Source: Terriglobia bacterium
GTDB taxonomy: Bacteria; Acidobacteriota; Terriglobia; Versatilivoradales; Versatilivoraceae
DNA length: 64,000 nucleotides
Assembly: GCA_041476565.1 (NCBI GenBank)
Contig: JBGOTQ010000001.1
Span: 6,280-70,279, forward strand
Direction of reading: 5' to 3'
Positions within the stretch are counted from its first letter, which is position 1, and every line of letters starts with the position of its first letter. The notes beneath the pieces are model-generated. The model was not told the origin of the DNA and did not search any database. It saw only the letters and a list, made by a program, of their open reading frames with translations. Position numbers and translations under genes: made by a program. Shown in pieces: positions 13,953 through 63,201 of the stretch.

Positions 13953-14807
13953 ATGTTAGAAGGATTTGTCATTACCTTGCGAGAAGGGATGGAGGCCTTC
14001 CTTATTGTCGGGTTGTGCCTTGCTTATTTGCGGAAGAGCGGTCGCCGACACCTGGAGAGAGCTGTGTACTGGGGCATCGCTGTTGCCCTCGTCCTTTGTA
14101 CTTCCGCTGGAGTAGTCCTCTATCAAGCAACGTTTAACCAGTCTTACTGGGAAGCTATCCTCTCGCTGGTGGCAGCACTCTTTGTGGGAACCCTTACCCT
14201 GCACATGTGGCGGGCCTCACGTAGGCTCAGGAAAGAGATCGAAACCCAGCTGGAGCTGGCTTCCGCCAAAACCGGGGGGGCAGCCGCCTATTGGGGCGTC
14301 TTTATTTTCACCATCCTGATGATTTCTCGGGAGGGCATTGAAACGGCCTTGCTGCTTGGTTCGCTCATGTTCCAGGCACAGGCCCGACCCGTGCTCGCCG
14401 GGGGCGTGCTTGGTCTCTTGGCCGCCATTGGGTTGGCCTTCTTGTGGGCGCATTATGGACGGCGAATCAATCTGTCCCGTTTCTTCCAGGTGACAGCCCT
14501 CTTCCTGTTGATCTTTGTCGTCCAGTTGCTCATCTATTCGTTCCACGAATTTACCGAGGCTTCGCTTTTTTCCAACAGTGAATATCTTCATCGCATTACG
14601 GAACCCTACGGGCCCGACGGTAGATATGGAAAGTTTCTGACGTATTGCTTGGTCCTGATCCCGGCAGGGTGGTTTCTTATCTCCTCAGCGCTGATACGGA
14701 AAAAAGACCACCGCAGAAGCCTGTCCACCCTCCAGTCCCTTGATCCGGTGGGAAGGCCGGTCTTGTCACCAACAGAAAGGGCTCTTGACTGTGGAAAAAG
14801 TAATTAA
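13953..14807 (+). CDS. FTR1/EfeU-family high-affinity iron permease
   Basis: Two RExxE motifs sit in predicted TM helices ([13 protein letters not shown] and [13 protein letters not shown]), which is diagnostic of the FTR1/EfeU family. Confidence 0.65.
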
Positions 14808-15192
14808 GCCTGATGCCCAGTGGAGGAAGATTCTTACACCCAAACAATACCAGGTGACCCGCCGGAAAGGTACAGAACCGGCATTTAGCGGGGAGTACTG
14901 GGACACGCATGACAGGGGGACCTTCCGCTGTGTCTGTTGTGGGAATGATCTGTTCACTTCAAACAAAAAATTCGATTCAGGGACGGGCTGGCCCAGCTTC
15001 TGGGATCCTGTTGCCAAAGAAAACATCCGGACCGTAATCGACAACAGCTTACCCCTGCCGCGAATTGAAGTCCTCTGTAGCCGCTGCGATGCCCATCTCG
15101 GACATATTTTTGAAGACGGCCCAGAACCAACCGGACTGCGCTATTGCATCAACTCTGCAGCCTTAATGTTCGACAGGTCCCCGCAGGAGTGA
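14740..15192 (+). CDS. msrB: peptide-methionine (R)-S-oxide reductase
   Basis: [26 protein letters not shown], the CxxC pairs (CVCCG ... [12 protein letters not shown]) and the catalytic RYCINS region match MsrB. The likely real start is the GTG at 14791, which overlaps the end of the permease gene. Confidence 0.85.
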
Positions 15193-15196
15193 CCCC

Positions 15197-16084
15197 TTAA
15201 CGCTTGGCTTCGAAATCAAAATACTCCTGTTCCACAACATACCCTTTGTCTTTCAGCTCGATCTTTAACAGGGTGTGACCGGGAAGATAGAGTCTCTTTC
15301 CAAACAACGTCTCAGGCCGATAGTCAATTTGGAACTCATATTTGCGCCAGCCTTTGGGGAGCTTGAGTTGCTTAGCAGAGATCCGAAGCAACCGGTTGTC
15401 GTTCACACCAACCCAGAGGAGCCCACGTTGACGGAGGGGGACCGGGTGGCCGAGGATATTGATCTGTTGGCCAGCGAGTTGTGGGACGGTCTCAAATCGG
15501 AGAACCTCGCAATTGTTTCCATCAATTACTTCCTGCCGCTCTTTATGGAAATCGCTGGCAAAACGATTCTCGAAATCAAACATCTGGTTGATGGCGCCTG
15601 TGAAAGGGTTGTCCAGGGTCGGCAAATCCCCCAACGCGCCGGGGTCATTCCCTGCGGCCCCCCCCCCCCACATACGTGTCTCCCGGAACGTTGCTCGAGT
15701 GGCAACCTCCCGGTTTTGTTGGCGCTCGACTTGATAACCGTTCAGAAATTCACGTCTGGCTAGTGTCTGTCCCTTGGCGTCAGATTCCGTGACGACAAGT
15801 CTCTCCCGACATTGAAAACTTCTTAGCGAAATCTGGTCCATGCTCAGGTTTTCGCTCAAGTGTGTCAGAATCTGCTGATCGTCTTCAAATATGATGGATT
15901 CTTCCTGGGCCCAGAGGGGCACAACTCCAGTCCCCAGCAGAAACAAAAAAACTGCGCGCAAGAGTGGTTTTTGTTGGTTCACTTCATCTTTCCGAATCCA
16001 GTGGGGCATGCCGGCCAGGGTCGCGGCCGACCATTGCTCCTGGCTTTCCCAATGTGCTACGATGTCAGAAGGTTGCCTAGTCAA
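15197..16084 (-). CDS. hypothetical secreted protein
   Basis: It has a signal-peptide-like LLRAVFLFLLGTGVVPLWAQ and no recognisable domain. It contains an in-frame G12 homopolymer that encodes WGGGAAG. Confidence 0.5.
   Translation of the reverse strand: MTRQPSDIVAHWESQEQWSAATLAGMPHWIRKDEVNQQKPLLRAVFLFLLGTGVVPLWAQEESIIFEDDQQILTHLSENLSMDQISLRSFQCRERLVVTESDAKGQTLARREFLNGYQVERQQNREVATRATFRETRMWGGGAAGNDPGALGDLPTLDNPFTGAINQMFDFENRFASDFHKERQEVIDGNNCEVLRFETVPQLAGQQINILGHPVPLRQRGLLWVGVNDNRLLRISAKQLKLPKGWRKYEFQIDYRPETLFGKRLYLPGHTLLKIELKDKGYVVEQEYFDFEAKR
15658..15669. repeat. C12/G12 homopolymeric tract inside a CDS
   Basis: Twelve consecutive C residues on the plus strand, counted directly. This is the longest homopolymer in the window. 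Confidence 0.9.
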
Positions 16085-28464: not shown

Positions 28465-28745
28465 GCTAATAATCCTAAGCTTTTCTAAGAATAACTTAAC
28501 AATCTAAATAGAAGTAAGAGTAGACCCCATCAAAAATCGGAAATTCCTCTAATACATTTCCAGTCTGCCAATTACCCTGTGGAAAACATAGACTACCCAC
28601 TTAGAATTGTACCACCAAACAGTCATCGGTTCCAAGAGCGATCAAGAACGCACAGATTCCGCACAGGCCGGTTGGCACGGGGTGTGGAAAAAGCCCCCTT
28701 TTTATTGGAATGATTCCAAAAACATGCTGATGAGGTTGTGGAAAT
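28465..28745. promoter_or_regulatory. candidate oriC element: AT-rich unwinding region plus three same-orientation TGTGGAAA(A/T) DnaA-box-like motifs
   Basis: An AT-rich stretch at 28465-28545 sits in an otherwise GC-rich genome. TGTGGAAAA occurs at 28578-28586 and 28683-28691, and TGTGGAAAT at 28737-28745. These are one mismatch from the revcomp of TTATCCACA. The region lies between dnaA and dnaN. Confidence 0.45.
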
Positions 28746-30069
28746 CTTTGTTCTTATTTCTCAGGTCTTCGACCTTATTGATTGAATGCAGTACCGTGGT
28801 GTGATGCTTACCCCCAAATTCTCGGCCGATTTCGGGCAGGGAGGCCCTTGTGAGTTGACGACATAGATACATCCCTATCTGACGGGGATGCGCGATGGCT
28901 TTGGAATTATTCTTAGACTTGAGTTCCACGATTTTCAGGTTGAAGTATTCGGCGACGATCCGCTGAATCTGCTCAATACTGATGTGCTTCTCCTGAGACT
29001 TGAGGATGTGCTTTAAAACCTCTTGTGCCATGGACAAGGACACTTGTTCACCGCGCAAGGAACTGAAAGCCATGAGCCGAACCAAGGATCCTTCCAGTTC
29101 GCGGACGTTTGATTTGATTTTACTGCCAATATAGAAAGCCACATTATCAGGAATTTCAAAATTCTCGCTTTCGGCTTTCTTCTTTAGAATAGCCACCTTG
29201 GTCTCCAAGTCAGGCGGCTGAATGTCAGCGATCAAGCCCGACTCGAACCGGGACTGAAGCCGTTCCTGAATCGAAGGAATCTCCTTGGGGAGTGCATCGC
29301 TGGAAATGACAATCTGCTTCTGAGCATCGTAGAGAGCATTGAAGGTGTGGAAGAACTCCTCTTGGGTGGCTTCCTTCCCGGCAATGAACTGGATATCATC
29401 AATGAGGAGCACGTCCACATTGCGATACTTTTCCCTTAGGGCTAAGGTCTTATCGTATCGGATTGCGTTAATAACCTCATTGGTGAATTTCTCCGAGGAA
29501 ACATAATTGAGGCGGACACGCCGGTCAGTGGTCTTGATCTTGTGGCCGACGGCCTGCATCAAGTGGGTCTTTCCCAAGCCCACTCCCCCATAGATGAACA
29601 GGGGATTGTATGCCTTCGAAGGAGCCTCAGCCACAGCCAGAGCTGCCGCATGGGCGAATTGATTGCTGGATCCCACAACAAATCGGTCAAAGGTATACTT
29701 GGGATTTAACAGGTATTCGACGGAATCAAAATTAAGGGTAGTCTGAACAGGAGCAGGTGACACCTCCTTCTTGGCCGGTCCTTTTTGGCTAAGAAATAAG
29801 ATTCTGAGCTCTCCGAGTTGCAGTTCCTGGATGGCAGCTTGGAGCAAATCCGAGTAGTGCCTGCCCAGCCAGTCTTCAAAAACTTGGTTGGGAACCCCCA
29901 CCACGAGGGTGTCTTCATCGATGGCCTTCAACTGGGTAGGCTTGAACCATGTGACAAAATCCTGCCGATCGATCTTTCTTTCAATGAATTTGAGGATCTC
30001 CTGCCACGTATCCATGCTAAAGACCCACGTACAACCCCCCCCCGCTTCTATAAATGGGAGGGACTCCAA
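28702..30069 (-). CDS. dnaA: chromosomal replication initiator protein DnaA
   Basis: It has AAA+ Walker A (GGVGLGKTHLMQAVGH), sensor motifs and the C-terminal DNA-binding HTH (TVLHS). The likely true start is the internal ATG at 30015 (MDTWQEILKFIE). Confidence 0.95.
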   Translation of the reverse strand: MESLPFIEAGGGCTWVFSMDTWQEILKFIERKIDRQDFVTWFKPTQLKAIDEDTLVVGVPNQVFEDWLGRHYSDLLQAAIQELQLGELRILFLSQKGPAKKEVSPAPVQTTLNFDSVEYLLNPKYTFDRFVVGSSNQFAHAAALAVAEAPSKAYNPLFIYGGVGLGKTHLMQAVGHKIKTTDRRVRLNYVSSEKFTNEVINAIRYDKTLALREKYRNVDVLLIDDIQFIAGKEATQEEFFHTFNALYDAQKQIVISSDALPKEIPSIQERLQSRFESGLIADIQPPDLETKVAILKKKAESENFEIPDNVAFYIGSKIKSNVRELEGSLVRLMAFSSLRGEQVSLSMAQEVLKHILKSQEKHISIEQIQRIVAEYFNLKIVELKSKNNSKAIAHPRQIGMYLCRQLTRASLPEIGREFGGKHHTTVLHSINKVEDLRNKNKDFHNLISMFLESFQ

Positions 30070-30331
30070 TTTCGGTGATTATGATCCAGGGCGATGAGTT
30101 TCGATTTGGTGAACTTTATGGATCCTGCTGTCTTTGATTGTCATCCATGACAGGTTGTCAATATACCATACGGGTGGGATCGATTCAATTCAAATGCGGC
30201 ATTTGGATTGACACGGTAGGAGCACTATGCTATACGTGGTTGTTTGCAATTTTGATCGGGTGGCTATCGCCCACGCCCTCGGTGCCTGCCCGATTTGAAG
30301 TCAATCTACTCTTTCTGGAGTTTTTTCCACG
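30070..30331. promoter_or_regulatory. divergent dnaA / rpmH promoter region (alternative oriC location)
   Basis: A 260-nt non-coding spacer between divergent dnaA and rpmH. Replication-associated genes are oriented away from it on both sides. It has a C9 tract at 30045-30053 and only weak DnaA-box-like matches. Confidence 0.35.
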
Positions 30332-30466
30332 ATGCTGCCGACTTTCAGGCCGAATAGAAGGAAGCGAGCCAAGACACATGGATTTCGCGAGAGGATGAGC
30401 ACCCGAGGTGGTCGCTTGGTGCTAAAGCGCCGTCGTAATAAAGGACGCAAACGGCTAATTCCGTAG
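30332..30466 (+). CDS. rpmH: 50S ribosomal protein L34
   Basis: Manual translation gives [44 protein letters not shown] (44 aa). This matches the L34 consensus MKRTFQPSxxKRxRxHGFRxRMxTxxGRxVLxxRRxKGRxxL. It is missing from the ORF track because it is under 60 aa. Confidence 0.85.
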
Positions 30467-30476
30467 ACCTCTGGCG

Positions 30477-30836
30477 TTGAGCAAAAGTTCTGACAAGAGT
30501 GGCCGGCTGTTGCGCTCCCGGGATTTTCAGAAGGTTCACGCTGAAGGGTGCAAGGTTTCAGGCCGGTGGGTGCAGTTGCTGTACCTCCCCAATTTACTGG
30601 AAAGGTCCCGTTTGGGGCTGGCCGTAGGCCGGAGACTGGGGAAAGCGGTCGAGAGGAATCGGCTGAAACGGCGGCTCCGGGAGATCATCCGGCGAAACGG
30701 GGCTGCCATCGTCGGTGGATTCGACGTCGTAGTTCTGGTAAGGCCACAGGCCCGGGATGCGGACTTTTCCGCGATTACTTCAGATTTTCTTGACTTATTT
30801 GGCCGTTTGAAGAACAGAAAAGTTGGAAGCCTTTAA
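30477..30836 (+). CDS. rnpA: ribonuclease P protein component
   Basis: It is basic and 119 aa, with LLRSRDFQKV...RLGLAVGRRLGKAVERNRLKRRLREI (the RNR motif). It sits directly after rpmH, with a TTG start. Confidence 0.85.
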   Translation: MSKSSDKSGRLLRSRDFQKVHAEGCKVSGRWVQLLYLPNLLERSRLGLAVGRRLGKAVERNRLKRRLREIIRRNGAAIVGGFDVVVLVRPQARDADFSAITSDFLDLFGRLKNRKVGSL

Positions 30837-31041
30837 GATAGTCATCCTGGCCGTTCTTAGACTCTACAAGGGGTTGATCTCTCCCTGGTTGCCTCCAGCC
30901 TGCAGGTTTTGGCCGACGTGTTCCGACTATTCGTACCAAGCTGTTAGCAAGTATGGAGTCTTGCGAGGAGGTGTGCTCGCAGTCAAGCGAGTCTGCAAGT
31001 GCCACCCCTTCCACTCCGGAGGACAAGATCTCCTGCATTGA
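30823..31041 (+). CDS. yidD: membrane protein insertion efficiency factor
   Basis: ISPWLPPACRFWPTCSDYSYQAVSKYGVLRGGVLAVKRVCKCHPFHSGG is the YidD signature. The protein is 72 aa. Confidence 0.85.
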   Translation: MEAFKIVILAVLRLYKGLISPWLPPACRFWPTCSDYSYQAVSKYGVLRGGVLAVKRVCKCHPFHSGGQDLLH

Positions 31042-31065
31042 TTCTCGAGGATCGAGTGGAGACGT

Positions 31066-32760
31066 ATGCAAATGGAAAGACGCCTCTTGATTGCTTTTGC
31101 GCTGTCGTTCTTGGTGATCATGCTTTCTCGCTCTCTCTGGGAACCGGCAAAAGTCCCTGGCTCAAAGGTCCCATTGGCTCCTCTTACTGCCCCACCCAAG
31201 AGGAATTCCGAGGCCCTGCCGATGGACCAAGCAGAAAGTGTTGTTCTTGAAAGCCGCTCCGCTGGAAACGAGAAGACGTTCGAGATTGAAACCGATTTGC
31301 ATAAGCTGGTCGTTTCTAACAAAGGCGCCGTCATCAAGAGTTGGATTCTCAAACGGTACCGGGACAACAGCGGGAGACCCTTGGACCTGTTGGATGGCAG
31401 GAAAGTCGAGTTATTTGGGGCTCCGTTTGTCGTGCGGGTAGACCGTGAGGATGCTGTGACCAAGCAGTTGGCCAGCGCTCTGTTTGCCTGTGAGAGTCCC
31501 GCTCGAATTGCTCTGTCCGGACAAGGTTCTTCTGCGCAAACTCTCACCTTTGACTACGCCGATGGCAAACTCCGCGCGAGCAAGTCAATCCGCATCGTGC
31601 CGGGTTCGTATAAAGTTCAGGTCAGTAGCCGGGTCTGGATCAACGGGCGGCCCAGCGATCACTTTCTGATCTGGCCGGCAGGCTTTGGCGACTCGGCCGC
31701 GGATGAGAGGACGGCATTGCACGCCGCTCTGTACCGAAATGCTCAAAAGATCACGCGACTGAAGGCCGACAAGATCGAGGCGGAGCAGGAAATCTCCGGA
31801 ACCTTCGATTTTGTGGGGGTGGAAGACCAGTACTTTGCCGCGTTGTTTCTTCCAGTGAATTCTGAGCCGATGACGCGGATCCTGGTGGGACGGGACGAAA
31901 ATGTGCAGGAAAGCGGCAAGAAGCAGTTCCTTCCTAGCGCCGGAGTGTGGGTTAGTGCGCAGGACCCACAAGGCCTGAGCGTGTTCGTTGGCCCGAAGGA
32001 TTCTGGGGTACTTCCCAAAGTCGGCCCCAACTTAATCGACATCATCGATTATGGATGGTTTGGAGTGGTCGCTCGGCCGTTGTTTCTTGCCTTGAAGGGG
32101 ATCTATGGGTTTGCTAGAAACTATGGCGTGGCTATCATTATCTTGACTATCTTGATCAATTTGGCTTTGTTCCCTCTGCGCTATAAGTCGATGGTGTCTG
32201 CCCAAAAGATGCAAAAGGTGCAGCCCCAGATGAAGGCCATCCAGGATAAATACAAGAAGCTGAAGCCCACCGATCCCAAGCGTCAGCAGATGAACACAGA
32301 AGTAATGGCTTTATACAAGCAGCACGGGGTCAATCCCTTAGGTGGATGTCTGCCGATGCTTCTACAAATGCCTTTTTTCCTCGCCTTTTATAATCTGTTA
32401 TCGGTTTCCATCGAGTTACGGCAAGCTCCGTTTGTTTTCTGGATCAGGGATCTTTCAGCTTACGACCACACTTTCATACTCCCGATATTAATGACCCTTT
32501 CGATGGTTGTATCCCAGAAGATGACTCCGACCCCCTCCGCCGACCCAGTTCAGGCCAAGATGATGCTGGCTATGCCACTTGTTTTTGGCTTTATGCTGGC
32601 GTTCACCTCCAGTGGCCTGGTGCTCTATTGGCTGACTAGCAATCTGACTGGCATCGGACAGCAATACTTCATGAATAAGTACAGACCCACGGCCGCCAAC
32701 CAGCCGGCCAGGAGGGGCCATGATGGCAAAAGAGAATCCACTCGAAAAGACTCGCGCTAG
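31066..32760 (+). CDS. yidC: membrane protein insertase YidC
   Basis: An N-terminal TM is followed by a large periplasmic domain and the C-terminal conserved 60-kDa insertase core (ILTILINLALFPL...QHGVNPLGGCLPMLLQMPFF). Confidence 0.9.
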   Translation: MQMERRLLIAFALSFLVIMLSRSLWEPAKVPGSKVPLAPLTAPPKRNSEALPMDQAESVVLESRSAGNEKTFEIETDLHKLVVSNKGAVIKSWILKRYRDNSGRPLDLLDGRKVELFGAPFVVRVDREDAVTKQLASALFACESPARIALSGQGSSAQTLTFDYADGKLRASKSIRIVPGSYKVQVSSRVWINGRPSDHFLIWPAGFGDSAADERTALHAALYRNAQKITRLKADKIEAEQEISGTFDFVGVEDQYFAALFLPVNSEPMTRILVGRDENVQESGKKQFLPSAGVWVSAQDPQGLSVFVGPKDSGVLPKVGPNLIDIIDYGWFGVVARPLFLALKGIYGFARNYGVAIIILTILINLALFPLRYKSMVSAQKMQKVQPQMKAIQDKYKKLKPTDPKRQQMNTEVMALYKQHGVNPLGGCLPMLLQMPFFLAFYNLLSVSIELRQAPFVFWIRDLSAYDHTFILPILMTLSMVVSQKMTPTPSADPVQAKMMLAMPLVFGFMLAFTSSGLVLYWLTSNLTGIGQQYFMNKYRPTAANQPARRGHDGKRESTRKDSR

Positions 32761-32772
32761 TGATGGAGGGCC

Positions 32773-33201
32773 ATGACTCTGGAGGATTTTTTCAGCGTTT
32801 TTGTGGGTAGTACGCGACTGCATGTTACTTATGAAATCCAGCGGCAGCCGGATGATGTCGGGGTCGATTTCTCGGGCGAAGACGCGCCCATCCTGCTGGC
32901 GCGAAACGCTGAAGTAATCCGGGCCTTGGAATACCTGGCCAATCACCTTTTTGAAAAGCAGGAGGGCCGCAAAATCCAGGTCGACTGTCAGGGGTATCGA
33001 GCTGTTCGGGCCGAAGAACTGTGCCTCATGGCCTTAACCGCCGCGGAGAAAGTGAAACGGCTTGGGAAGCCTTTTCCCCTGAGCCCGATGTCTCCGGAGG
33101 AACGGCGTATTATCCACTTGGCCGTTGCCGACGATCCTCTTCTGCGCACCGAAAGCGAGGGGTTCGGGGAGAATCGCAAGGTGGTCATCTATCCCAAGTA
33201 G
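32773..33201 (+). CDS. jag: Jag/KhpB-like RNA-binding protein (KH + R3H)
   Basis: It has a C-terminal R3H-like region (ERRIIHLAVADDPLLRTESEGFGENRKVVIYPK) and lies in the conserved position after yidC. Confidence 0.75.
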   Translation: MTLEDFFSVFVGSTRLHVTYEIQRQPDDVGVDFSGEDAPILLARNAEVIRALEYLANHLFEKQEGRKIQVDCQGYRAVRAEELCLMALTAAEKVKRLGKPFPLSPMSPEERRIIHLAVADDPLLRTESEGFGENRKVVIYPK

Positions 33202-33203
33202 TC

Positions 33204-34577
33204 ATGCCCACCCTGACCGAGGACACTATCGTGGCCATCTCGACTCCAATGGGGCGGAGCGGGATTGGCGTGATCCGCCTCAGCGGCAAAGATTCGCTTT
33301 CCCTTATTGACACGGTTTTTCAGCGCTCAGGCCGCGCCTTGCGTGACCGGTCTCCCGCGCTGGGCGACATCGTCGATCCCCAACGCAACCAGGTCCTCGA
33401 CCAGGTGCTTGTGACTTGTTTCCTGGCTCCGCGATCATTTACCCGCGAAGACGTGGCGGAAGTGAGCTGCCATGGTAGCCCGGTGGTGTTGAAGGCCATT
33501 CTGGAACTGCTCATCCGCCAGGGGGCGCGTCTGGCCGCTCCTGGAGAATTCACCTTGCGGGCCTTCCTGAGAGGGCGAATTGATCTGGTCCAGGCGGAAG
33601 CCATCCATGACCTGATTGAAGCCCGCACCTTGTTTCAAGCTAGAGTGGCTCGCCAGCAAGCGGGAGGAGCTCTTTCCCATCGCCTGGGACCGTTGAAAGA
33701 ACAACTGGTGCAGTTGATTGCTTTGCTGGAAGCTGGCATCGACTTTGCCGACGACGACGTTTCAGTTCTCCCCACGGCAGAGGTCGAACAGAGACTGGCA
33801 CCGCTTCTGCAGGAACTGCACCGGCTCCAAGCCAGTTATGCCTTTGGCAAGGTCTTGGCGGAAGGCTTAAGTCTGGCCATTGTGGGGCGTCCCAATGTGG
33901 GCAAATCGAGTCTCTTTAATGCCCTGCTCGAGGAACCCCGAGCCATCGTCACCGAAGTGCCCGGCACGACGCGGGATCTGCTCTCCGAGACTGTCCAGAT
34001 CTGCGGCATTCCCGTCCGGCTTATGGATACGGCAGGTATCCGGCCGGCCCAGGACAGGGTTGAACAATTGGGGATCGATCGATCAATGGAAGCCTTGGCG
34101 GATGCCGATCAAGTTCTAATGGTCGTGGATGGGTCTGAGGAACTGGGTCAGGACGATCATCAACTGCTGAAGCAGATGGAGGGGCGGCCTTATCATCTGG
34201 CGATCAACAAAATGGATTTGCCGCCGCGCTGGAGCCCCGATAGTATTAAGGCAGGTGCCCGGACGGTAACCTCCGTATCCGCCCTGACCGAAGAAGGGGT
34301 AGGGACACTGAAGACCCGGCTGTTTCAGGCCTTCCAGCATGATGAGGCTTTGGAAAACGAAGGGGCACTGCTGACCAACCTCCGCCACGAGCAATCGGTG
34401 AGGGAGGCATTGGACGCATTGCTCCGAGTAAGGGAGGAAGTGACCCAGGGCCTTCCGCATGAGATTTTCCTTTTGGACCTGTACGTGTGCCTGCGGGCTC
34501 TGAATGCCTTGACCGGAGAAACTACCGTGGCGGACATTCTGGACCGCATTTTCTCGACCTTCTGTATCGGCAAGTAG
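33204..34577 (+). CDS. mnmE: tRNA uridine-5-carboxymethylaminomethyl modification GTPase
   Basis: [20 protein letters not shown] is followed by the GTPase G1 motif [10 protein letters not shown] and DTAG, with a C-terminal CIGK. The start is taken at the ATG at 33204, just after the jag stop. The ORF-track N-extension overlaps jag. Confidence 0.9.
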
Positions 34578-34615
34578 GTCAAAAAACTCGGGGCCTGCCC
34601 TTGAGGTCGGTTGAC

Positions 34616-36478
34616 ATGACTTCTTTTGCAAAGGCTTTTGACGAAAATTATGATGTGGTAGTTGTCGGTGCTGGGCATGCTGGTTGCGAAGCCGCTATGG
34701 CGGCGGCCCGGATGGGACAGGAAACGGCTCTCTACACTATGAATCTGGACCTGATTGCTCAGATGTCCTGCAATCCGGCGGTCGGAGGGATTGCCAAAGG
34801 GCACTTGGTTCGAGAAATCGACGCGCTTGGTGGAGTGATGGGCGAGGTCATTGACCGGACCGGAATCCAGTTCCGCCTCCTCAACCGCAGCCGCGGCCCG
34901 GCTGTCTGGTCGCCCAGGGCGCAGGCCGACAAGCAGGCCTACCGGGTCGAGATGCGCCGGGTGCTGGAACAACAAACTCGGCTGCGCATCAAGCAGGCTG
35001 AAGTTATTTCCATCCTAGGGGACGGAGACGTGGTCAGGGGCATCGAGCTGCGCGATGGGCGGCGGGTCGGAGCCCAGGCCGTTATTCTCACCACGGGGAC
35101 CTTCCTGAACGGTCTGATTCACATCGGCGAAAACCGTTGCGCTGCAGGGCGCAGTGGGGAGTTGCCTTCCATTTCGCTGGCCGAGTCGATCAAGTCAATG
35201 GGCTTTGAGTGGGGTCGGCTGAAGACCGGGACGCCGCCTCGCCTGGACGGCAGAACCATTGAATTCGGCTGCTTGGAGGAACAGAAAGGGGACGCCGTTC
35301 CCACGCCGTTTTCCTTCCGCACGGAGAGAATCTCTCAGCCGCAGATCTCCTGCTATATCACCTACACCCACGAGGGAGTCCACCAAATCATACGGGACAA
35401 CATGGCGCGTTCCCCCCTGTACAGCGGACAGATCCAGGGCGTCGGCCCTCGCTACTGCCCCTCCATCGAAGACAAAGTTGTCAAGTTTCCTGACAAGCCC
35501 CGGCACCAGCTCTTCCTGGAGCCGGAAGGGCTGAACACCTATGAAGTCTACGTAAACGGCCTCTCCACCAGCATGCCTGTGGACGTGCAGATGCAAGTCC
35601 TGCATGGCATCCCAGGCTTGGAGAAAGCCGAAGTCATTCGTCCCGGGTACGCCATCGAATACGACTTTGTGCGACCGACCGAGCTTCAGCCCACATTAGA
35701 AACCAAGCAATTACGCGGTCTTTACCATGCCGGTCAAATCAACGGCACGACCGGTTACGAGGAGGCCGCGTGCCAGGGGTTAATGGCTGGCATCAATGCT
35801 GCCCGGCAAGTCCAGGACAAGGCCCCTCTGGTTCTGGAGCGTCACCAGGCCTATATCGGGATCCTGATCGATGACCTGGTGACCCTGGGTACCGACGAAC
35901 CCTATCGCATGTTTACTTCACGGGCAGAGTTTCGTTTGCACCTGCGCATTGACAATGCTGACCAGCGGCTAACCCCCATCGGGCATCGCTTGGGGCTGGT
36001 TACGGAAGAGTCGTTCCAGCGGTTCCTGTCCAAGCAGGCCCGCATGCAGGCACTGGAGTCATTTTTGCGCACGTTGACAATACCGGTAGATTCCGGGCGA
36101 ATTTCAGCCGTGCAGGCGCTGAAGCGCCCGGAGGTGTCGCTGGAGAGCCTGTGGACGGCGCTGCCAGCCGACATACAGCGGTCTCTAACCCCGGAGGAAG
36201 TAAAGAGCGTGGAAACCGCCATCAAGTACGAGGGCTACTTGAGGCAGCAAGACCTGGAAATCGAGCGGATGCGGAAAGCCAGCTCGCGCCGCATTCCGGC
36301 CCAATTCGAGTATCACACGATCCCGGGGCTGTCGCGCGAAGTCGTCGAAAAGCTCTCGCGGGTTCGCCCCTCCAGCATCGGCCAGGCCAGCCGGATTCCA
36401 GGCATCACGCCGGCCGCCCTCTCCATTATTCACATCTACCTGGAACTTCGCGCCCGGGAAAAGCAAGAAACAGCGTAA
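34616..36478 (+). CDS. mnmG: tRNA uridine 5-carboxymethylaminomethyl modification enzyme
   Basis: [23 protein letters not shown]...[22 protein letters not shown] matches GidA/MnmG. The start is the ATG at 34616. Confidence 0.9.
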
Positions 36479-39074: not shown

Positions 39075-39803
39075 CTACTTGCTCGTCTCGGTGGAATGGT
39101 CTGGCGGGAGAGGCTGGGGTCTGACATGGGCTCGCGTGAATTGCGAAGCTGGCAGCACGGTGTCTCTGTCGAATTTCATTCGAAAAACGGTCCCGACCGC
39201 GAGTCGAATATCCTTGCCCTTGCTTAAGAGCAAACCTGCCAGGGCTCCCGCCGCGGGTCCGGCGATGGCGGGCCCCACACTGTGAGTGGCAATCGCTGCG
39301 GGCGTACTGGCAATGGAGCCGAGTGTGGCCCCTTTGGCTGCATTCTCCAGAGCCTTGCCTGTCGAACTGTTTGCCTTCAACTTCCCTTCCGAGTCCGTCT
39401 TGATCTTTTCATCGTTAGCCACGTCGTCGGCCGCAGCCACTGAAACGAATACAGGTTCAGCGCCATAGCTGGTGGTGATTTCATTAAACATGGCATAGAT
39501 CTCCGCGCGGCGCTTGGATCGGGTAGCAGCCGTCACCTGCGTGATCTTGCCGGTAATCTCGGTGCCCCGGGGCAGGACGTAACGATCGCTGACCTGAAGA
39601 GGGACCGTCAGCGTCACAGAAATGAAGTCCCCTACCTCCGAGATCTTAGAGCTGATCGGAGTCTGCAGCGAGGCTTGGAACCTCATCCCCGCCGGAATGA
39701 CCACCTTGTCCGGTTCCTGACCGAGTCCATTAGACAGGGTTACGAGGATTATCCCGGTAGTGGCTATGAGTGCTACAAACCGGTGGCGGGGGATTCTGCA
39801 CAT
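39075..39803 (-). CDS. hypothetical secreted protein with C-terminal glycine-zipper (SlyB/17-kDa-antigen-like) segment
   Basis: The start is taken at ATG 39803, six nt after an AGGAGA ribosome-binding site. A signal peptide (FVALIATTGIILVTLS) is present. The C-terminal GATLGSIASTPAAIATHSVGPAIAGPAAGALAGLL is a glycine-zipper pattern. Confidence 0.5.
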   Translation of the reverse strand: MCRIPRHRFVALIATTGIILVTLSNGLGQEPDKVVIPAGMRFQASLQTPISSKISEVGDFISVTLTVPLQVSDRYVLPRGTEITGKITQVTAATRSKRRAEIYAMFNEITTSYGAEPVFVSVAAADDVANDEKIKTDSEGKLKANSSTGKALENAAKGATLGSIASTPAAIATHSVGPAIAGPAAGALAGLLLSKGKDIRLAVGTVFRMKFDRDTVLPASQFTRAHVRPQPLPPDHSTETSK

Positions 39804-39879
39804 GTGACTTTCTCCTTTTGTTCGCCATTTCTCCTTCAGCGAGTTGGCCTGCATTTTCCTGGAGCTCCGAAGTCTCCCG

Positions 39880-40569
39880 TTACTTAAGCTCAATCTCAAA
39901 GAAAAGCAGGTTCCCCTGGGTCCGTAGGTTCCGGATTTCGGGGATATATATTTTGTAACCGTTGAGCGGTTTCTGGTTGTCCCGGAGTTGAAAAAAAACA
40001 AAGCCGGAGGATGTCGACTTAGGGGCGACCCGAGCTTCCTTGAGTGCTTTGTTCGTGAAGTCGGTTTCGATTTCAAATGCATCTTTGCTGGGACCATCCC
40101 GTTTAGGCATGGGGAAAGGCATCGGCATACGCTTGCCGGGCGAGCCGCCCTTGCCTGGGTTTACGAGAGCTTGAATCACTTCATCCACCGGGATTTGGGC
40201 AATCGAGTGGTTCTTAGGATCCAGCAGGGTTACATCCGGGCCGCTGAGCAAAACCGGATCCTCTCCATCGTTGGTTACGATGATGTGAATCGGGACGATC
40301 CCCAATCTGTCCAGGTCCTTGACATCAAAAGCAGTACGAATCTTCTCTTTAGTCCAGTAGGCATCCGCCGCAATCGTGACCGCTCCCTGCTGCTGATGGC
40401 CGGGGTAAGTCGAAGCCGGATCCACTTTGACCCGGACGCTCTTGTAAGCGCCGAGAACCGAGGTCGTCAGAACTAAAGCGAGCAGCCCTCCACAGAAGGC
40501 AGACCTCCATCGAGGTTGAAGAAGAGCAGTCCTCGCATCATGGAAAAGAGGTGGTCTTAATTTAGACAT
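39880..40569 (-). CDS. hypothetical secreted protein
   Basis: It has a good ribosome-binding site (GGAGAAAAAGG ATG) and a signal-peptide-like GGLLALVLTTSVLGA. No recognisable domain was found. Confidence 0.5.
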   Translation of the reverse strand: MSKLRPPLFHDARTALLQPRWRSAFCGGLLALVLTTSVLGAYKSVRVKVDPASTYPGHQQQGAVTIAADAYWTKEKIRTAFDVKDLDRLGIVPIHIIVTNDGEDPVLLSGPDVTLLDPKNHSIAQIPVDEVIQALVNPGKGGSPGKRMPMPFPMPKRDGPSKDAFEIETDFTNKALKEARVAPKSTSSGFVFFQLRDNQKPLNGYKIYIPEIRNLRTQGNLLFFEIELK

Positions 40570-55013: not shown

Positions 55014-55964
55014 ATGCAGACTCTGTTTGGTACACCGGAAAAGAGAGAAGGGCTGTTCAGCAAATTAAAGTCAGCTGTGAGCTCGACTAAGGCTAATTTG
55101 GTCGCCCGGATCGAGGAGGTTGTCAGCGGCAAGAAAGAAATTGATGCCAGCCTCCTCGATGAATTGGAGACTGTTTTGATCGGGGCTGACCTCGGTTTTC
55201 AAACCAGCACGGAGATTCTGGGTGGCATCCGCGAGAAAGTCAGACGCCAGGAGGTCAGAGATGCTGCCTTGCTGAAGCCCCTGATCAAAGCAGAGATTTT
55301 GAGAATCCTGGAGTCTACGCCTTCACTTCCTAAAGAATCCGAGGCCCAACGCCCCAGGGTCATCGTGGTCGTGGGCGTCAATGGAGTTGGGAAGACGACC
55401 ACCATTGGGAAGCTCGCTAACCTCTACCAGCAGGCAGGTCAGAAGGTTCTGATTTGTGCTGCAGACACCTTCCGGGCTGCAGCCGTCGAACAACTGGAGG
55501 TGTGGGCTCGGCGGGCAAATGTCGCGATCATCCGCCAGAAACCCGGTGCAGACCCGTCAGCTGTTTTGTTTGATGCCATCATGGCATCGAAGGCACGCGA
55601 CGTCGGGGTGCTGATTGTGGATACCGCCGGTCGACTTCACACCAAGGACAGCTTGATGCGCGAGCTTGAAAAGATGAAACGCATCGCTGGACGGGAAATC
55701 CCCGGGGCGCCTCATGAAGTGCTTCTGGTGATCGATGCCGTGACCGGACAGAACGGCCTGAACCAGGCCAGAGAGTTCACTCGCAGTGCCGGAGTCAGTG
55801 GCATTGTGTTGACCAAGCTGGACGGAACAGCCAAGGGGGGGGTGGTCGTGGCCATTGCGAAGGACCTCAAAATACCGATCCAATATGTGGGCGTCGGAGA
55901 GAAACTGGATGACCTTGTGGAGTTCTCCCCCCAGCAGTTTGTGGAGTCGCTGTTTAACGGATAG
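55014..55964 (+). CDS. ftsY: signal recognition particle receptor
   Basis: The NG domain is present: [25 protein letters not shown] and [10 protein letters not shown]. The acidic A-domain is short. Confidence 0.9.
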
Positions 55965-59333: not shown

Positions 59334-60902
59334 ATGGTGACCCTGCCGCGGCTGAATAGTCGCTATGAGATTCGAGATGTTCTTGGACAGGGGGGAATGG
59401 GGATTGTTTACAAAGCTTATGACTCAGTGATTCGGAGAGAGGTGGCTCTTAAGACGCTTCGGGACGCCCCTGATCCTGCTGCTCTTGAGACTTTCCAGAA
59501 GGAATGCGGAGTGCTGGCCTCCATGGCCCACCCCAATACGGTCGAGATTTTTGACCTGGGGGAGTTTGAAGAAAACGGGACCCACAAACCCTATTTCGGC
59601 ATGCCCTTGCTTCCCGGGATGACCCTGGAGGCCTTGATTCGAATGGCCAGCCAACGGCTGACCGTGGAGCGGGTGGTAGAGATTATCACCCAAACATGCC
59701 GGGGGCTGCAGGCCGCTCATGAACGCGGGCTGATCCACCGAGACCTTAAGCCCATCAACATTTTTGTTCTGGATGACGATTCGGTGAAGATCATCGACTT
59801 CGGGGTTGCGCACATATGCGACAGCCGCACGACTATGGGTTTGAAGGGAACCCTGGCGTACATGTCGCCTGAGCAAATCGAGATGAAACCGCTCTCCCCC
59901 CTGTCCGACCTCTTCTCCCTGGCAGTCGTGGGTTACGAAACGCTGGCACTCCGCCGTCCCTTTCAAGGCAAGACCCAGAGCGAGATCGTGGAGGCCATCC
60001 TGCATCAAATCCCGCCACCTGTATCGGAATTCAACCCTGCAGTCAATTCTTTGATCAGCCGGGTCATTCACAAGGCCTTGGCCAAACAACCCTTTCACCG
60101 GTTCGCCTCCGCCAGGGAATTTGCTGAGATCGTACAAAAGGCGCTTCGCAATGAAAGGCTCGAAATCTTTGATCCGAGCCGGATTCAGCCCCGCGTTCAA
60201 CGGGCTGCCCGGGCATTTGAGCAGGAAGATTACCAGTTTGCCGCCGCGATCCTGGGGGAACTGCTGGCGGAGGGATTGCCGATCAGATTCAGAAAAGCAT
60301 CGGAACGGTGGATATGGTATGGAGTCGCTCTGCTGTTGGTTGTGATGCTGGGCGGAATCTGGGCCCATCGGCGTCGTCCTCCTTCCACGGCGTCGCAGCC
60401 TACCCTGCCGAATCCTGCGCCTTCACACCCCATTCGTCTGGACGTATTGACGACCCCGCCCGGGGCGAGGATATTCATCAATGATCGAGTGCGCGGCACT
60501 GCCGACTTGGTCTTGGAGCTGTTGCCAGGTTCGCATCAGATTCGCGCAGAGGTAGAGGGTTACGTTCCGACTACCACCCCGCTGGAGCCTAAGCCCGATT
60601 CGGCATTGCCCCCGATGGAAATTGTCCTTCAACCAGCGTCTGGAGCAAGCACTTCCAGTACTCAATCACCTTCAGAATCGGGCGCACAGCAAACTCAAGG
60701 TTCCTCTGCCTCCCTGGCGAAAAGAAGGAAGGCTTTGGAGACTCGGGCCCCTGTCTCCAGCTTGGCTGTTGAGTCGGCGCCACTCCCGGGCACTCTGCGG
60801 GGCTATCTCCAACTGAAGCGCTCTCCTGCCAGCAGCCAGGTGGTGTTGGAAGGGGGGGAGAACCGCAACCCCGCCTGCTCACTGAAGACCGCATGGAATT
60901 GA
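59334..60902 (+). CDS. Ser/Thr protein kinase with TM segment and extracytoplasmic PEGA domain(s); C-terminus apparently truncated by frameshift
   Basis: The Hanks kinase motifs are GQGGMGIVYKA, VALK, HRDLKPINI and DFGVA. A TM helix (WIWYGVALLLVVMLGGIW) and a PEGA domain (LDVLTTPPGARIFINDRVRGT...GSHQIRAEVEGYVP) follow. A second PEGA-like start is cut off at the stop just after a G7 run. Confidence 0.8.
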   Translation: MVTLPRLNSRYEIRDVLGQGGMGIVYKAYDSVIRREVALKTLRDAPDPAALETFQKECGVLASMAHPNTVEIFDLGEFEENGTHKPYFGMPLLPGMTLEALIRMASQRLTVERVVEIITQTCRGLQAAHERGLIHRDLKPINIFVLDDDSVKIIDFGVAHICDSRTTMGLKGTLAYMSPEQIEMKPLSPLSDLFSLAVVGYETLALRRPFQGKTQSEIVEAILHQIPPPVSEFNPAVNSLISRVIHKALAKQPFHRFASAREFAEIVQKALRNERLEIFDPSRIQPRVQRAARAFEQEDYQFAAAILGELLAEGLPIRFRKASERWIWYGVALLLVVMLGGIWAHRRRPPSTASQPTLPNPAPSHPIRLDVLTTPPGARIFINDRVRGTADLVLELLPGSHQIRAEVEGYVPTTTPLEPKPDSALPPMEIVLQPASGASTSSTQSPSESGAQQTQGSSASLAKRRKALETRAPVSSLAVESAPLPGTLRGYLQLKRSPASSQVVLEGGENRNPACSLKTAWN

Positions 60903-61495
60903 GAGAAGGGGCTTACACAATGACAGTCACAGCTCCGGGGTTCAATAAGCTCATCGTCCCGCTCCACATCGAGCCGAGCAAGACCGAAATAGTGGAACTC
61001 AGCCTTCAGCCGGTCAAGGAACCCGAGCTTGACTGGAAAAACGCTTGGGAGGATGTAGCTGGGTGGTCCAGTGAGGGAGATTGGCTGGTTCATCGGGGTG
61101 GCAACTTCGTGTTGTCAACGCTGCACCCCATTACCGGAGCGTATGAATTCACCCTCTGGCGCAAGAGCAAGAATGTTCAGTGGGTTCTGAACTACACCGA
61201 TGACCGCAACTACGACCTGTTTGAGATCGACAAGAAATACTTTTTGCGGACACGAATTCGAGATGGCAGGAAGAGTCAGACGGCGAAGGCTTCCCACAAA
61301 CTGGAGAAACAGTCTTCCTATTCCTTCCAATTAGAGGTCACTCCACAAGCGATTGTCACCAGGGTCCTGGACGGGGGGGTGTGGGTAGCCCTTGATGAGT
61401 GGAAAGATGCCGGGCCCGTGACAGGCAAGTTTGGGTTTTACATCCAAGGCAAGGATCAAGTAGGATTATCTCACTTCATGTACAAACCTCGGTAA
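60893..61495 (+). CDS. DUF1080-like (ConA-like / 3-keto-disaccharide-hydrolase-like) domain ORF, probably the displaced C-terminal part of the upstream kinase
   Basis: The C-terminal GKFGFYIQGKDQVGLSHFMYKP resembles the DUF1080 terminal GxIGLQxHGxxVxFRNI motif. Its reading frame is reached from the kinase frame by a single extra G in the G7 tract at 60852-60858. That would give a continuous PEGA-like sequence ...VVLEGGGEPQPRLLTEDRMELREGAYTMTVTAPGF... Confidence 0.5.
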   Translation: MELREGAYTMTVTAPGFNKLIVPLHIEPSKTEIVELSLQPVKEPELDWKNAWEDVAGWSSEGDWLVHRGGNFVLSTLHPITGAYEFTLWRKSKNVQWVLNYTDDRNYDLFEIDKKYFLRTRIRDGRKSQTAKASHKLEKQSSYSFQLEVTPQAIVTRVLDGGVWVALDEWKDAGPVTGKFGFYIQGKDQVGLSHFMYKPR

Positions 61496-61524: not shown

Positions 61525-63201
61525 ATGATCCCACAAGTTCAGACGAATATGGAAAGAGAACTGATCATAAACTTTCCTGACGGGAAGACCAAGACCATCC
61601 CGCTCACGAAGGCCCGATGGACGGTGGGCCGGTCCAGTGAGAATGACCTCAGTTATCCAGAGGATTCCGGCCTGTCGCGACAACACTTCGTTCTGGAACA
61701 GGAGGAGGAAGATTGGGTACTTTCGGATTTGGGCAGCAAGAACGGAACCTTCCTGAATGGGGCTCGGGTTCACGCTCGACAAAGGCTCAAACCCGGGGAC
61801 CGTGTGACCGCGAGCCACCTGGTTCTGGCCTATTGTAGTTCCAAAGAGGCCATCAACCAATGCTCGATCATCTTCGAGAAGAGTCCGGAGGAACTCCTGA
61901 CCCGGCGAGGCCTGAGCACCACCTCGCTGGATCAGATTATCTCAACCCATGCGACCTCCGTCCGCCCTGCCTTGGGACCATCGCGGGAGCAGTGGAGGGC
62001 CCCCTTGGACGCCTTCCGGCGCGCCGGCCGGGAACTCTCACTGGGCCGGCCGTTGCAGGAACTGTTCCAGGTGATCCTCGATCTTTCCATAGAGGCAGTG
62101 GGGGCGGAAAGGGGAGTTCTGCTTACTTTGGAAGGAGGGAAATTGATGGTGCGGGCTTCCCGGGGCGACGGTTTCCGAATCAGCACCACAGTTCGGGACC
62201 GGGTCATCAACGACAAGACATCTCTGTTATTGAAAGACGTTCAGGGTGACGAAGCATTCCGCGCGATGCAAAGCATCGTTGCTCAGAAAGTCAGAAGCCT
62301 GATGGCCGTGCCGCTACAAACTGACGATCAGGTGATCGGATTGATTTACGTCGATTCATCGCACTTGGCCCACGAGTTCACTAATGATGACCTGGATCTG
62401 TTGACTGTAATGGCGAATGTGGCCGGCATCCGGATTGAGCGTCAACGAATGACGGAGATTGAGCAATCCCGGCGCCGATTAACGGCGGAACTGGAGCAGG
62501 CTGCCGAGATTCAACGAGAGTTCCTGCCCGCCCAGGCTCCCGTGGTGCAGGGGCTGGATTTGGCCGGATACAATGCCCCTTGTCGCACGGTGGGCGGGGA
62601 CTATTACGACTTCCTGACCTACCCTGATGGGAAAGTGGTTGTGCTGGTTGGAGACGTTTGTGGCAAAGGGATGCCAGCCGCCCTCCTCATGATGAGCCTG
62701 CAGGCCCGAGTCCAGGTACTTGCTCAGGAGCCCGACAGCCCTGCCTCATTGGTCGAACGGCTCAACAGAATTCTCACTACTACTTCATCGAATAATCGTT
62801 TCGTTAGTTTTTTCTTCTCTCTTCTCGACCCCTGCACCGGGGAAGTGGTTTATTCCAATGCCGGCCATAACCCGCCCGTTTTGCTTCGCTCTGATGGAAG
62901 CACTCAACGCCTCGAAGGAGGCGGTCCGGTGTTGGGGATCCTGCCCGAAGCTTGCTATGAGGAACATCGGTGTCTCATGCAACCTGGAGATGTCGCCCTT
63001 CTATATAGCGACGGCGTTACGGAAGCCAATGACCCCCAAGGTGAGGAGTTTGGAGAAACCCGCTTGGTGGAGTTGCTGAGGAACACTCGGCAACAACCGG
63101 CAGCCAAGATTCTCAACACGATCACTCAAGCCGTGCATGACTGGATGGCTGGAGCACCAGCCGCCGATGACATCACATTGGTCGTTGTGCGAAGAATTTG
63201 A
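61525..63201 (+). CDS. FHA-GAF-PP2C (SpoIIE-like) Ser/Thr phosphatase
   Basis: The N-terminal FHA is WTVGRSSENDLSY...SRQHFVL...GSKNGTFLNG. A central GAF-like region follows. The C-terminal PP2C/SpoIIE region is GGDYYDF...VGDVCGKGMPAALLM...YSDGVTE. Confidence 0.8.
   Translation: MIPQVQTNMERELIINFPDGKTKTIPLTKARWTVGRSSENDLSYPEDSGLSRQHFVLEQEEEDWVLSDLGSKNGTFLNGARVHARQRLKPGDRVTASHLVLAYCSSKEAINQCSIIFEKSPEELLTRRGLSTTSLDQIISTHATSVRPALGPSREQWRAPLDAFRRAGRELSLGRPLQELFQVILDLSIEAVGAERGVLLTLEGGKLMVRASRGDGFRISTTVRDRVINDKTSLLLKDVQGDEAFRAMQSIVAQKVRSLMAVPLQTDDQVIGLIYVDSSHLAHEFTNDDLDLLTVMANVAGIRIERQRMTEIEQSRRRLTAELEQAAEIQREFLPAQAPVVQGLDLAGYNAPCRTVGGDYYDFLTYPDGKVVVLVGDVCGKGMPAALLMMSLQARVQVLAQEPDSPASLVERLNRILTTTSSNNRFVSFFFSLLDPCTGEVVYSNAGHNPPVLLRSDGSTQRLEGGGPVLGILPEACYEEHRCLMQPGDVALLYSDGVTEANDPQGEEFGETRLVELLRNTRQQPAAKILNTITQAVHDWMAGAPAADDITLVVVRRI

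Follow-up and report, generated by a model that had tools for sequence, protein, structure and literature searches.

The window analysed here is a stretch of 64,000 nucleotides from a Terriglobia bacterium (contig JBGOTQ010000001.1, assembly GCA_041476565.1), and it carries a gene for a receptor-type Hanks Ser/Thr kinase that is split into two overlapping open reading frames (ORFs) at a run of seven G (G7). Orthologue comparison demonstrated that the gene was ancestrally continuous and that the split is derived and located at the G-run. We consider it probable that the split reflects a genuine, heritable one-base contraction of this run in what was originally a single gene, and that it involves no dedicated mechanism of recoding. 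The G7 allele was observed in two diverged strains and several assemblies and is most likely young on an evolutionary scale. The event is an ordinary homopolymer frameshift, and it is slightly unusual in that a second strain shares the G7 and the detached part of the gene still looks conserved.

The break is defined by the following features.
59334–60902, plus strand: truncated kinase ORF of 522 amino acids (aa), from the ORF list, with Pfam matches to Pkinase (E 8e-44) and PEGA (E 6e-6).
60773–60902, plus strand: stretch in which the kinase frame and the −1 frame are both open, from the translations.
60852–60858, plus strand: G7 homopolymer, one base short of its 8-nt equivalent (GGCGGGGG in relative L006, GGGGGGGC in relatives L005/L008).
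60893–61495, plus strand: downstream ORF of 200 aa in the −1 frame, encoding the remainder of a second beta-sandwich and the C-terminal domain.

The zero frame of the kinase reads GTG GTG TTG GAA GGG GGG GAG AAC across the run, and the ORF ends in ...VVLEGGENRNPACSLKTAWN, with its stop 14 residues past the second Gly of the run after the out-of-frame tail ENRNPACSLKTAWN. The ATG of the 200-aa ORF at 60893 lies 7 nt before the kinase stop (TGA, 60900–60902), and the −1 frame is open from 60773; since both frames are open over 60773–60902, the frame change must fall within this interval. The initial annotation had described a kinase ORF broken at the G7, a next ORF overlapping it in the −1 frame, and a single protein of about 720 aa that one extra G would produce. 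All three were borne out, as translation after insertion of one G into the run gave an uninterrupted product of 720 aa. For annotation purposes the two ORFs are better treated as one frameshifted receptor-kinase gene than as a kinase and a hypothetical protein.

Our comparison with related genomes identified a single ORF in all orthologues but that of a very close strain, L007. A JGI contig (L005, Ga0335069_10014798) with 87–90% nucleotide identity to the window possesses a single 1342-aa ORF reading ...SQVVLEGGAEPQPRVLNEDHMELREG..., and shares the gene order ribBA, kinase, FHA-GAF-PP2C phosphatase and DinB with the window. The junction in L005 (GAA GGG GGG GCA GAA) and in Terriglobia bacterium SMAG_U14705 (L008; 99.95% identical to L005) reads ...VVLEGGAEPQPR.... 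The orthologue in L006 (protein P0131; 93.7% identity) is continuous through GAA GGC GGG GGA GAA, which encodes EGGGEP, and its junction VVLEGGGEPQPR is exactly the one that the initial annotation had predicted from the window alone. A more distant relative (L009; 71% aa identity) also reads through (GAA GGG GGC AGT GAA). In the three closest intact relatives the G-run is interrupted (GGCGGGGG, GGGGGGGC and GGGGGCAG), and the window gene with a run of eight (G8) aligns without gaps to the continuous homologues P0122, P0125 and P0131. Against L005 over about 7.5 kb (blastn), the sole uncompensated 1-nt coding gap is located at window position 60859, right after the run. Separate ORFs in several relatives, the observation that had been named as one that would speak against a single split gene, were found in one close strain, L007, which carries the same G7.

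Homologues were searched for with the C-terminal 239 aa; a full-length query was swamped by kinase domains and was uninformative on the junction. A scan of one genome per GTDB species identified 279 Acidobacteriota relatives of the C-terminal module, from which 80 loci were kept. A single tblastn segment crossed the junction in all 80, where the module forms the C-terminal end of ORFs mostly of 1350–1740 aa, and a kinase motif was found within the same ORF in 52 of them. The view of one gene that is split at the G-run and restored by one added base is therefore upheld by L005/L008, L006, L009 and all 80 of these loci. A separate search with the 208-aa segment from the transmembrane helix to the tail returned no match at E ≤ 0.001, though the identical P0001 is in the database; the linker is low-complexity and probably defeated the scoring.

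The window gene resembles the acidobacterial receptor-type Hanks kinases with TPR and PEGA domains (the L008 orthologue and 52 further loci) in its kinase, transmembrane helix, PEGA domains and jelly-roll and in its FHA-GAF-PP2C phosphatase neighbour, but differs from them in lacking a 622-aa TPR-like region and in having a frameshifted ectodomain.

Database homologues of about 190–230 aa that seem to stand alone are contig-edge calls or long-read frameshift artefacts. P0123 and P0128 (192–194 aa) were rejected as separate genes, being first-Met calls at contig edges with the frame open to the edge, and P0124 and P0127 were rejected as products of long-read MFD-type assemblies (L002 and L003) with scattered frameshifts. 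L002 (ENA ERZ25039469, 5930–5960) has an extra C in CCC, 4–5 codons downstream of the equivalent of the G-run, and in L003 (ENA ERZ25039547, 5850–5905) the orthologue is frameshifted about 50 codons upstream of that equivalent. The kinase and phosphatase genes of L003 are split as well, and their relative L010 is intact, so these breaks are probably long-read indel errors. The break in L002 is close to the same loop as the G-run, apparently by coincidence. In another homologue, P0126 (322 aa; JGI/ENA, on a 2159-bp contig), the activation loop ...MSLKGTL joins directly to ...TARPITEDRLELLEG... from the second sandwich. Missing from this protein are the remaining kinase sequence, the TPR region, the transmembrane helix and the first PEGA, and it represents either a natural large deletion or a chimeric assembly.

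Domains were assigned to the repaired gene as follows.
59364–60104, plus strand: Hanks-type Ser/Thr protein kinase domain (residues 11–257; Pfam PF00069, 149–150 bits, cut-off 31.7).
60309–60362, plus strand: single hydrophobic transmembrane segment, WIWYGVALLLVVMLGGIW, read from the translation.
60438–60596, plus strand: first PEGA domain (residues 369–421; PF08308, 26.5–32.1 bits, with 32.1 in the fused protein, cut-off 20.8).
60798–61003, plus strand: second PEGA-like beta-sandwich, encoded across the frameshift (AlphaFold2 residues 8–76, hhalign and a weak PF13620 match).
61064–61489, plus strand: C-terminal jelly-roll of predicted concanavalin-A-like lectin fold (AlphaFold2 residues 97–238; Foldseek against the PDB).

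The kinase motifs GQGGMG, VALK, HRDLKP, DFG and SPE are all present in the translation, and the position of the transmembrane segment suggests that all parts downstream of it are extracytoplasmic. The C-terminal 239 residues of the repaired product were modelled with AlphaFold2 (mean pLDDT 75), and the second sandwich emerged as one seven-strand unit (pLDDT 83–90), with two strands encoded before the G-run and five after it; because the break falls within one beta-sandwich in this model, it is expected to be structurally destructive. The initial annotation had read this region as a second PEGA domain. A single beta-sandwich was predicted across the break, and it aligned to the first PEGA of the same proteins (hhalign E 5.6e-5, probability 66%, 64 columns), with the G-run at the turn matching the ‘DG’ of the PEGA signature in the profile-profile alignment. 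The Pfam search gave no PF08308 match for a second copy across the junction, where it returned a sub-threshold match to PF13620 CarboxypepD_reg (15.8–18.8 bits against a cut-off of 32.3). The model and alignment support a ‘PEGA-like’ assignment at the fold level, not formal Pfam membership.

The same distinction applies to the C-terminal domain, which had been called DUF1080-like. CBM66 and DUF1080 are two names of one domain (PMC5673643). The predicted jelly-roll superposed best on B. subtilis CBM66 (4b1l/4b1m/4azz; Foldseek E 1.6e-5, TM-score (target) 0.64), followed by galectins and then GH16 enzymes. Identity to the CBM66 structures is 14–17%, however, and there was no Pfam match to DUF1080 (PF06439) at E ≤ 1 in the window protein or in any of 11 homologues, nor a PDB sequence-profile match of the C-terminal domain to CBM66. 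The label thus holds at the level of the predicted fold only, and ligand binding is putative.

Comparison of the kinase genes also identified a second lesion, which the initial annotation had omitted.
60265–60275, plus strand: junction of an in-frame 1866-bp (622-codon) deletion, from blastn against L005 and L007 and from the boundary sequences.
The deletion removed a cytoplasmic, TPR-like region that L005, L006, L007 and more distant homologues retain, and it is common to the window and three assemblies identical to it (L001, L004 and L091). Its boundaries carry an imperfect direct repeat of about 10 bp (GGCGGAGGGA / GGCTGAGGAA). Given this deletion, the ancestral protein was about 1340 aa and not 720 aa. 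The kinase gene of the window strain has been remodelled twice, by the 1866-bp deletion and by the frameshift, and the presence of a second lesion is consistent with altered constraint on the locus.

Another account is that the genome truly has eight bases at the run and an intact gene, and that the G7 is a sequencing or assembly error. A homopolymer is a classic site of indel errors, the downstream frame resembles that of a working gene, and the long-read assemblies L002 and L003 of related species contain scattered frameshifts in the same gene while their relative L010 is intact. On the other hand, the window and three other assemblies that are 100% identical to it over 3.0–4.0 kb (L001, Logan SRR35969162; L004, JGI 3300052991; L091, GCA_041497875.1, JBGQHI010000611.1) are differently bounded and agree on G7. 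The same G7 and the same overlapping ORFs were also found in L007 (JGI 3300069122), a distinct strain from another metagenome that retains the TPR region and is 96.8% identical to the window over 2,458 nt downstream of the deletion junction and 95.5% over 515 nt upstream. Tract lengths were read from the assembled contigs of these five assemblies and two strains, and the pure tract was G7 in all of them, while intact relatives carry interrupted tracts. Other runs in the window serve as in-frame controls, namely a G8 in ftsY, two further G7 runs, a C7 and a C12, and no other uncompensated coding indel separates the window from L005 over the 7.5 kb compared. The agreement on G7 across assemblies, its presence in L007 and the in-frame state of the other runs make a sequencing error very unlikely.

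The ftsY run (G8 at 55835–55842, within 55014–55964) encodes the conserved TAKGG motif in frame, and the assembly therefore handles G8 runs. Two other pairs of ORFs that might have been genes split at homopolymers (39075–40097 / 39880–40569 and 13953–14807 / 14740–15192) were judged by eye to be distinct genes or ORFs whose starts had been called too far upstream. Further strains were sought through exact matches to the neighbouring phosphatase and RibBA proteins, and none was found.

We therefore favour a true contraction of the run, and its course may be outlined as follows. The ancestral product would have been a single-pass receptor-type Hanks Ser/Thr kinase, comprising in order a cytoplasmic kinase domain, a TPR-like region, a transmembrane helix, an extracytoplasmic PEGA, a PEGA-like sandwich and a lectin-like domain of CBM66/DUF1080 fold. 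Slipped-strand mispairing during replication, the presumed cause, would have shortened GGG GGG GGA (G8) to G7. Ribosomes in the kinase frame would then stop 14 codons past the run and yield a 522-aa kinase with the catalytic domain, the transmembrane helix and the first PEGA, in which the second sandwich is cut after two of its seven strands and the putative ligand-binding, lectin-like domain is lost. Loss of sensing would be the consequence, and the remaining 200 codons would represent a still-intact but presumably non-functional remnant. Similar alleles are known as homopolymer frameshifts or young pseudogenes among the GeneTack ‘fs-genes’ (PMC3711429), in which a single-base indel in a run of at least seven splits a conserved ORF into two overlapping ORFs where orthologues are single genes. 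The window allele differs from these in being common to two strains 3.2% apart and in having a detached part that shows no extra relaxation.

This last point was taken from substitution analysis of the downstream frame. The tree ((window, L007), L006, L005) had 36 informative sites for it and 7 against, and by parsimony this topology makes the G7 older than the split between the window and L007. The downstream frame differs between these two strains by 11 synonymous and 12 non-synonymous changes, a ratio of non-synonymous to synonymous substitution (dN/dS) of 0.30. Neutrality was rejected at P = 0.006 (binomial, Nei-Gojobori sites), at P = 0.022 by simulation, or 0.011 counting the absence of stop codons, and at P = 0.03 with polarised lineage-unique sites; the signal is moderate and is based on 23 differences. 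Deeper comparisons between intact genes gave dN/dS values of 0.11–0.18. The intact neighbouring phosphatase gene showed 0.15 in the close pair versus 0.05 deeper, and the kinase domain 0.20 versus 0.06–0.08, and because this is the same roughly threefold inflation, the detached part has not undergone additional relaxation.

Recent recombinational spread of a G7 block was considered and rejected, as the identical stretch of window and L007 at the run is 132 nt in comparison to up to 218 nt elsewhere. Import of differences from intact lineages was likewise rejected, most differences between window and L007 being lineage-unique and the tree standing at 36 sites versus 7. With an unexceptional block length and mostly lineage-unique differences, neither process is evident.

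Several of these results weigh against a simple contraction with loss of the downstream part. The four assemblies that are 100% identical are perhaps not independent samples. A G7 inherited from the common ancestor should mean drift of the downstream frame, and no drift was seen; the constraint indicates instead that the allele is very recent or recurrent, or that the downstream part continues to be produced. Its continued use would also predict that a deletion in the gene keeps the frame, as the 1866-bp deletion does. Of the features expected of a decaying pseudogene, a disrupted frame is present and near-neutral evolution of the disabled part is not seen, and the constrained frame argues against an old, silent pseudogene. 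What remains is a G8 hot spot that contracted recently or repeatedly, a switch that flips back and forth between G7 and G8, or a low level of bypass. Among the three alternatives that the initial annotation had left side by side, a genuine frameshift is hence the most likely and a sequencing error is unlikely, while a slippage-prone switch is possible and unproven. That the G-run acts as a heritable reversible or leaky switch attaching a lectin-like sensor to the kinase, with selection keeping the detached part, appears doubtful to us. If true, it would represent contingency-locus or recoding logic in a signalling receptor of a soil bacterium, outside host-associated pathogens.

None of the defining features of programmed frameshifting was found, and recoding signals are absent. 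The zero frame GAA GGG GGG GAG contains no X XXY YYZ slippery heptamer, the candidates A GGG GGG and G GGG GAG being non-canonical. The region 60859–60960 folds at −20.2 kcal/mol versus a shuffle mean of −24.6 (z = +1.38, worse than shuffled), giving no stimulatory RNA structure, and the junction showed no Rfam match and no promoter-like or terminator-like site. A conserved frame change among orthologues was not observed either, as it was confined to the window strain and L007, with all relatives at ≤94% identity in frame.

One rival is a leaky bypass during expression: part of the time an extra G would be inserted by RNA polymerase, or a −1 slip of the ribosome would take place on GGG GGG G. 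Cells with G7 would then make the 522-aa kinase together with some 720-aa receptor, keeping the downstream frame under selection. Such a bypass would account for the purifying selection on this frame between the two G7 strains, and a −1 slip on GGG would re-pair perfectly and give exactly the orthologous EGGGEPQP. E. coli measurably bypasses frameshifting indels in homonucleotide repeats of 3–8 nt, G and C included (PMC3812077). The window locus resembles this ‘savior’ indel bypass (Rockah-Shmuel et al. 2013, PMC3812077; reviewed in PMC5009743) in its G repeat of ≤8 nt, where slippage could restore the frame, and in the retention of the sequence downstream of the indel. It differs in being known from sequence alone and in that no stimulatory elements were found, and natural documented cases are mostly in A/T runs. 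Known programmed transcriptional slippage in bacteria likewise uses A/T runs (PMC3711429). Considering also the absence of a canonical heptamer, of a stimulatory structure and of an Rfam match, the absence of the frameshift from relatives at ≤94% identity and the moderate selection signal (P 0.01–0.03), we judge bypass to be distinctly unlikely as the explanation of the locus.

Alternatively, the run may flip by replication slippage between G8 (full-length, with the sensor attached) and G7 (sensor-less), so that selection acts on the ON state and assemblies report a majority OFF state. Poly-G and poly-C contingency loci of this kind occur in surface genes of Campylobacter, Neisseria and Haemophilus, where they undergo slipped-strand phase variation. 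The window locus shares with them a coding G-tract in the gene of a surface-exposed protein and the dependence of the distal part on the length of this tract. It differs in that the tract is short (7/8) with no pure-tract length polymorphism observed, the host is a free-living soil acidobacterium, and in the OFF state a possibly active kinase would still be made instead of no protein. Tracts of seven or eight G are at the short end of those known to switch at a high rate. Phase variation of surface proteins through homopolymers is an established category, and the affected part of the receptor, being surface-exposed, is typical of phase-variable genes (PMC3711429). Further support comes from the location of the tract inside the ORF at the frame change (G7 at 60852–60858, indel at 60859), from the restriction of an uninterrupted run to the two frameshifted strains while the three closest intact relatives have interrupted runs, and from the sharing of G7 by strains that have diverged by 3.2%, with the downstream frame under constraint. 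Nevertheless, no G8 allele was present in any assembly, with two lineages sampled, and G/C runs of at least 7 in the window number 7 versus about 11 expected from base composition. Overall, we judge phase variation to be an unlikely explanation.

A third route to a constrained downstream frame is gene fission, in which translation stops at the TGA (60900–60902), re-initiates at the ATG (60893) and produces a separate 200-aa protein with a role of its own. This product would carry the N-terminal peptide MELREGAYTMTVTAPGFNK. With the ATG 7 nt ahead of the stop, the arrangement would permit translational coupling, and such pairs are known (PMC3711429). The product would, however, begin inside a beta-sandwich at strand 3 of 7, and it would lack a signal peptide or transmembrane segment although the domain is normally extracytoplasmic. 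In intact orthologues the Met at which it would start is simply an internal position, and P0122 and P0125 do not have it; as a Shine-Dalgarno-like sequence, the upstream GAAGA matches less well than the GAGGA found in intact L006. The stand-alone homologues of about 190 aa in databases are contig-edge calls or long-read frameshifts. On balance, we regard fission as highly improbable.

Under the favoured contraction, the locus represents a natural allele that separates a kinase from an ectodomain with a putative role in carbohydrate sensing and, in the window strain, from the TPR region too. The allele could help to show the roles of these modules in the very large and unstudied family of acidobacterial PEGA kinases.

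The gene following the kinase was also conserved in its position.
61525–63201, plus strand: FHA-GAF-SpoIIE/PP2C phosphatase gene (Pfam), syntenic in L002, L003, L005, L088 and L089.
It directly follows the kinase gene in every relative examined, which suggests a conserved kinase/phosphatase pair, and from this gene order the phosphatase is likely the partner of the kinase.

Two other long homopolymers were noted in the window. Twelve C at 15658–15669 (G12 on the minus strand) lie in frame in the ORF 15197–16084 (minus strand), where they encode ...MWGGGAAG...; this ORF has no Pfam match. By chance, 64 kb would contain about 0.01 runs of this length, which makes this one a candidate hypermutable tract. 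A C9 at 30035–30043 (G9 on the minus strand) is located at the very 5′ end of the ORF 28702–30069 (minus strand) or immediately before it; this ORF reads by eye as DnaA with a likely real start, MDTWQEIL, downstream of the C9. By eye, the region 28702–36478 carries this dnaA on the minus strand followed by jag-like, mnmE-like and mnmG/gidA-like ORFs on the plus strand, and judging from these genes the window probably adjoins the chromosomal replication origin.

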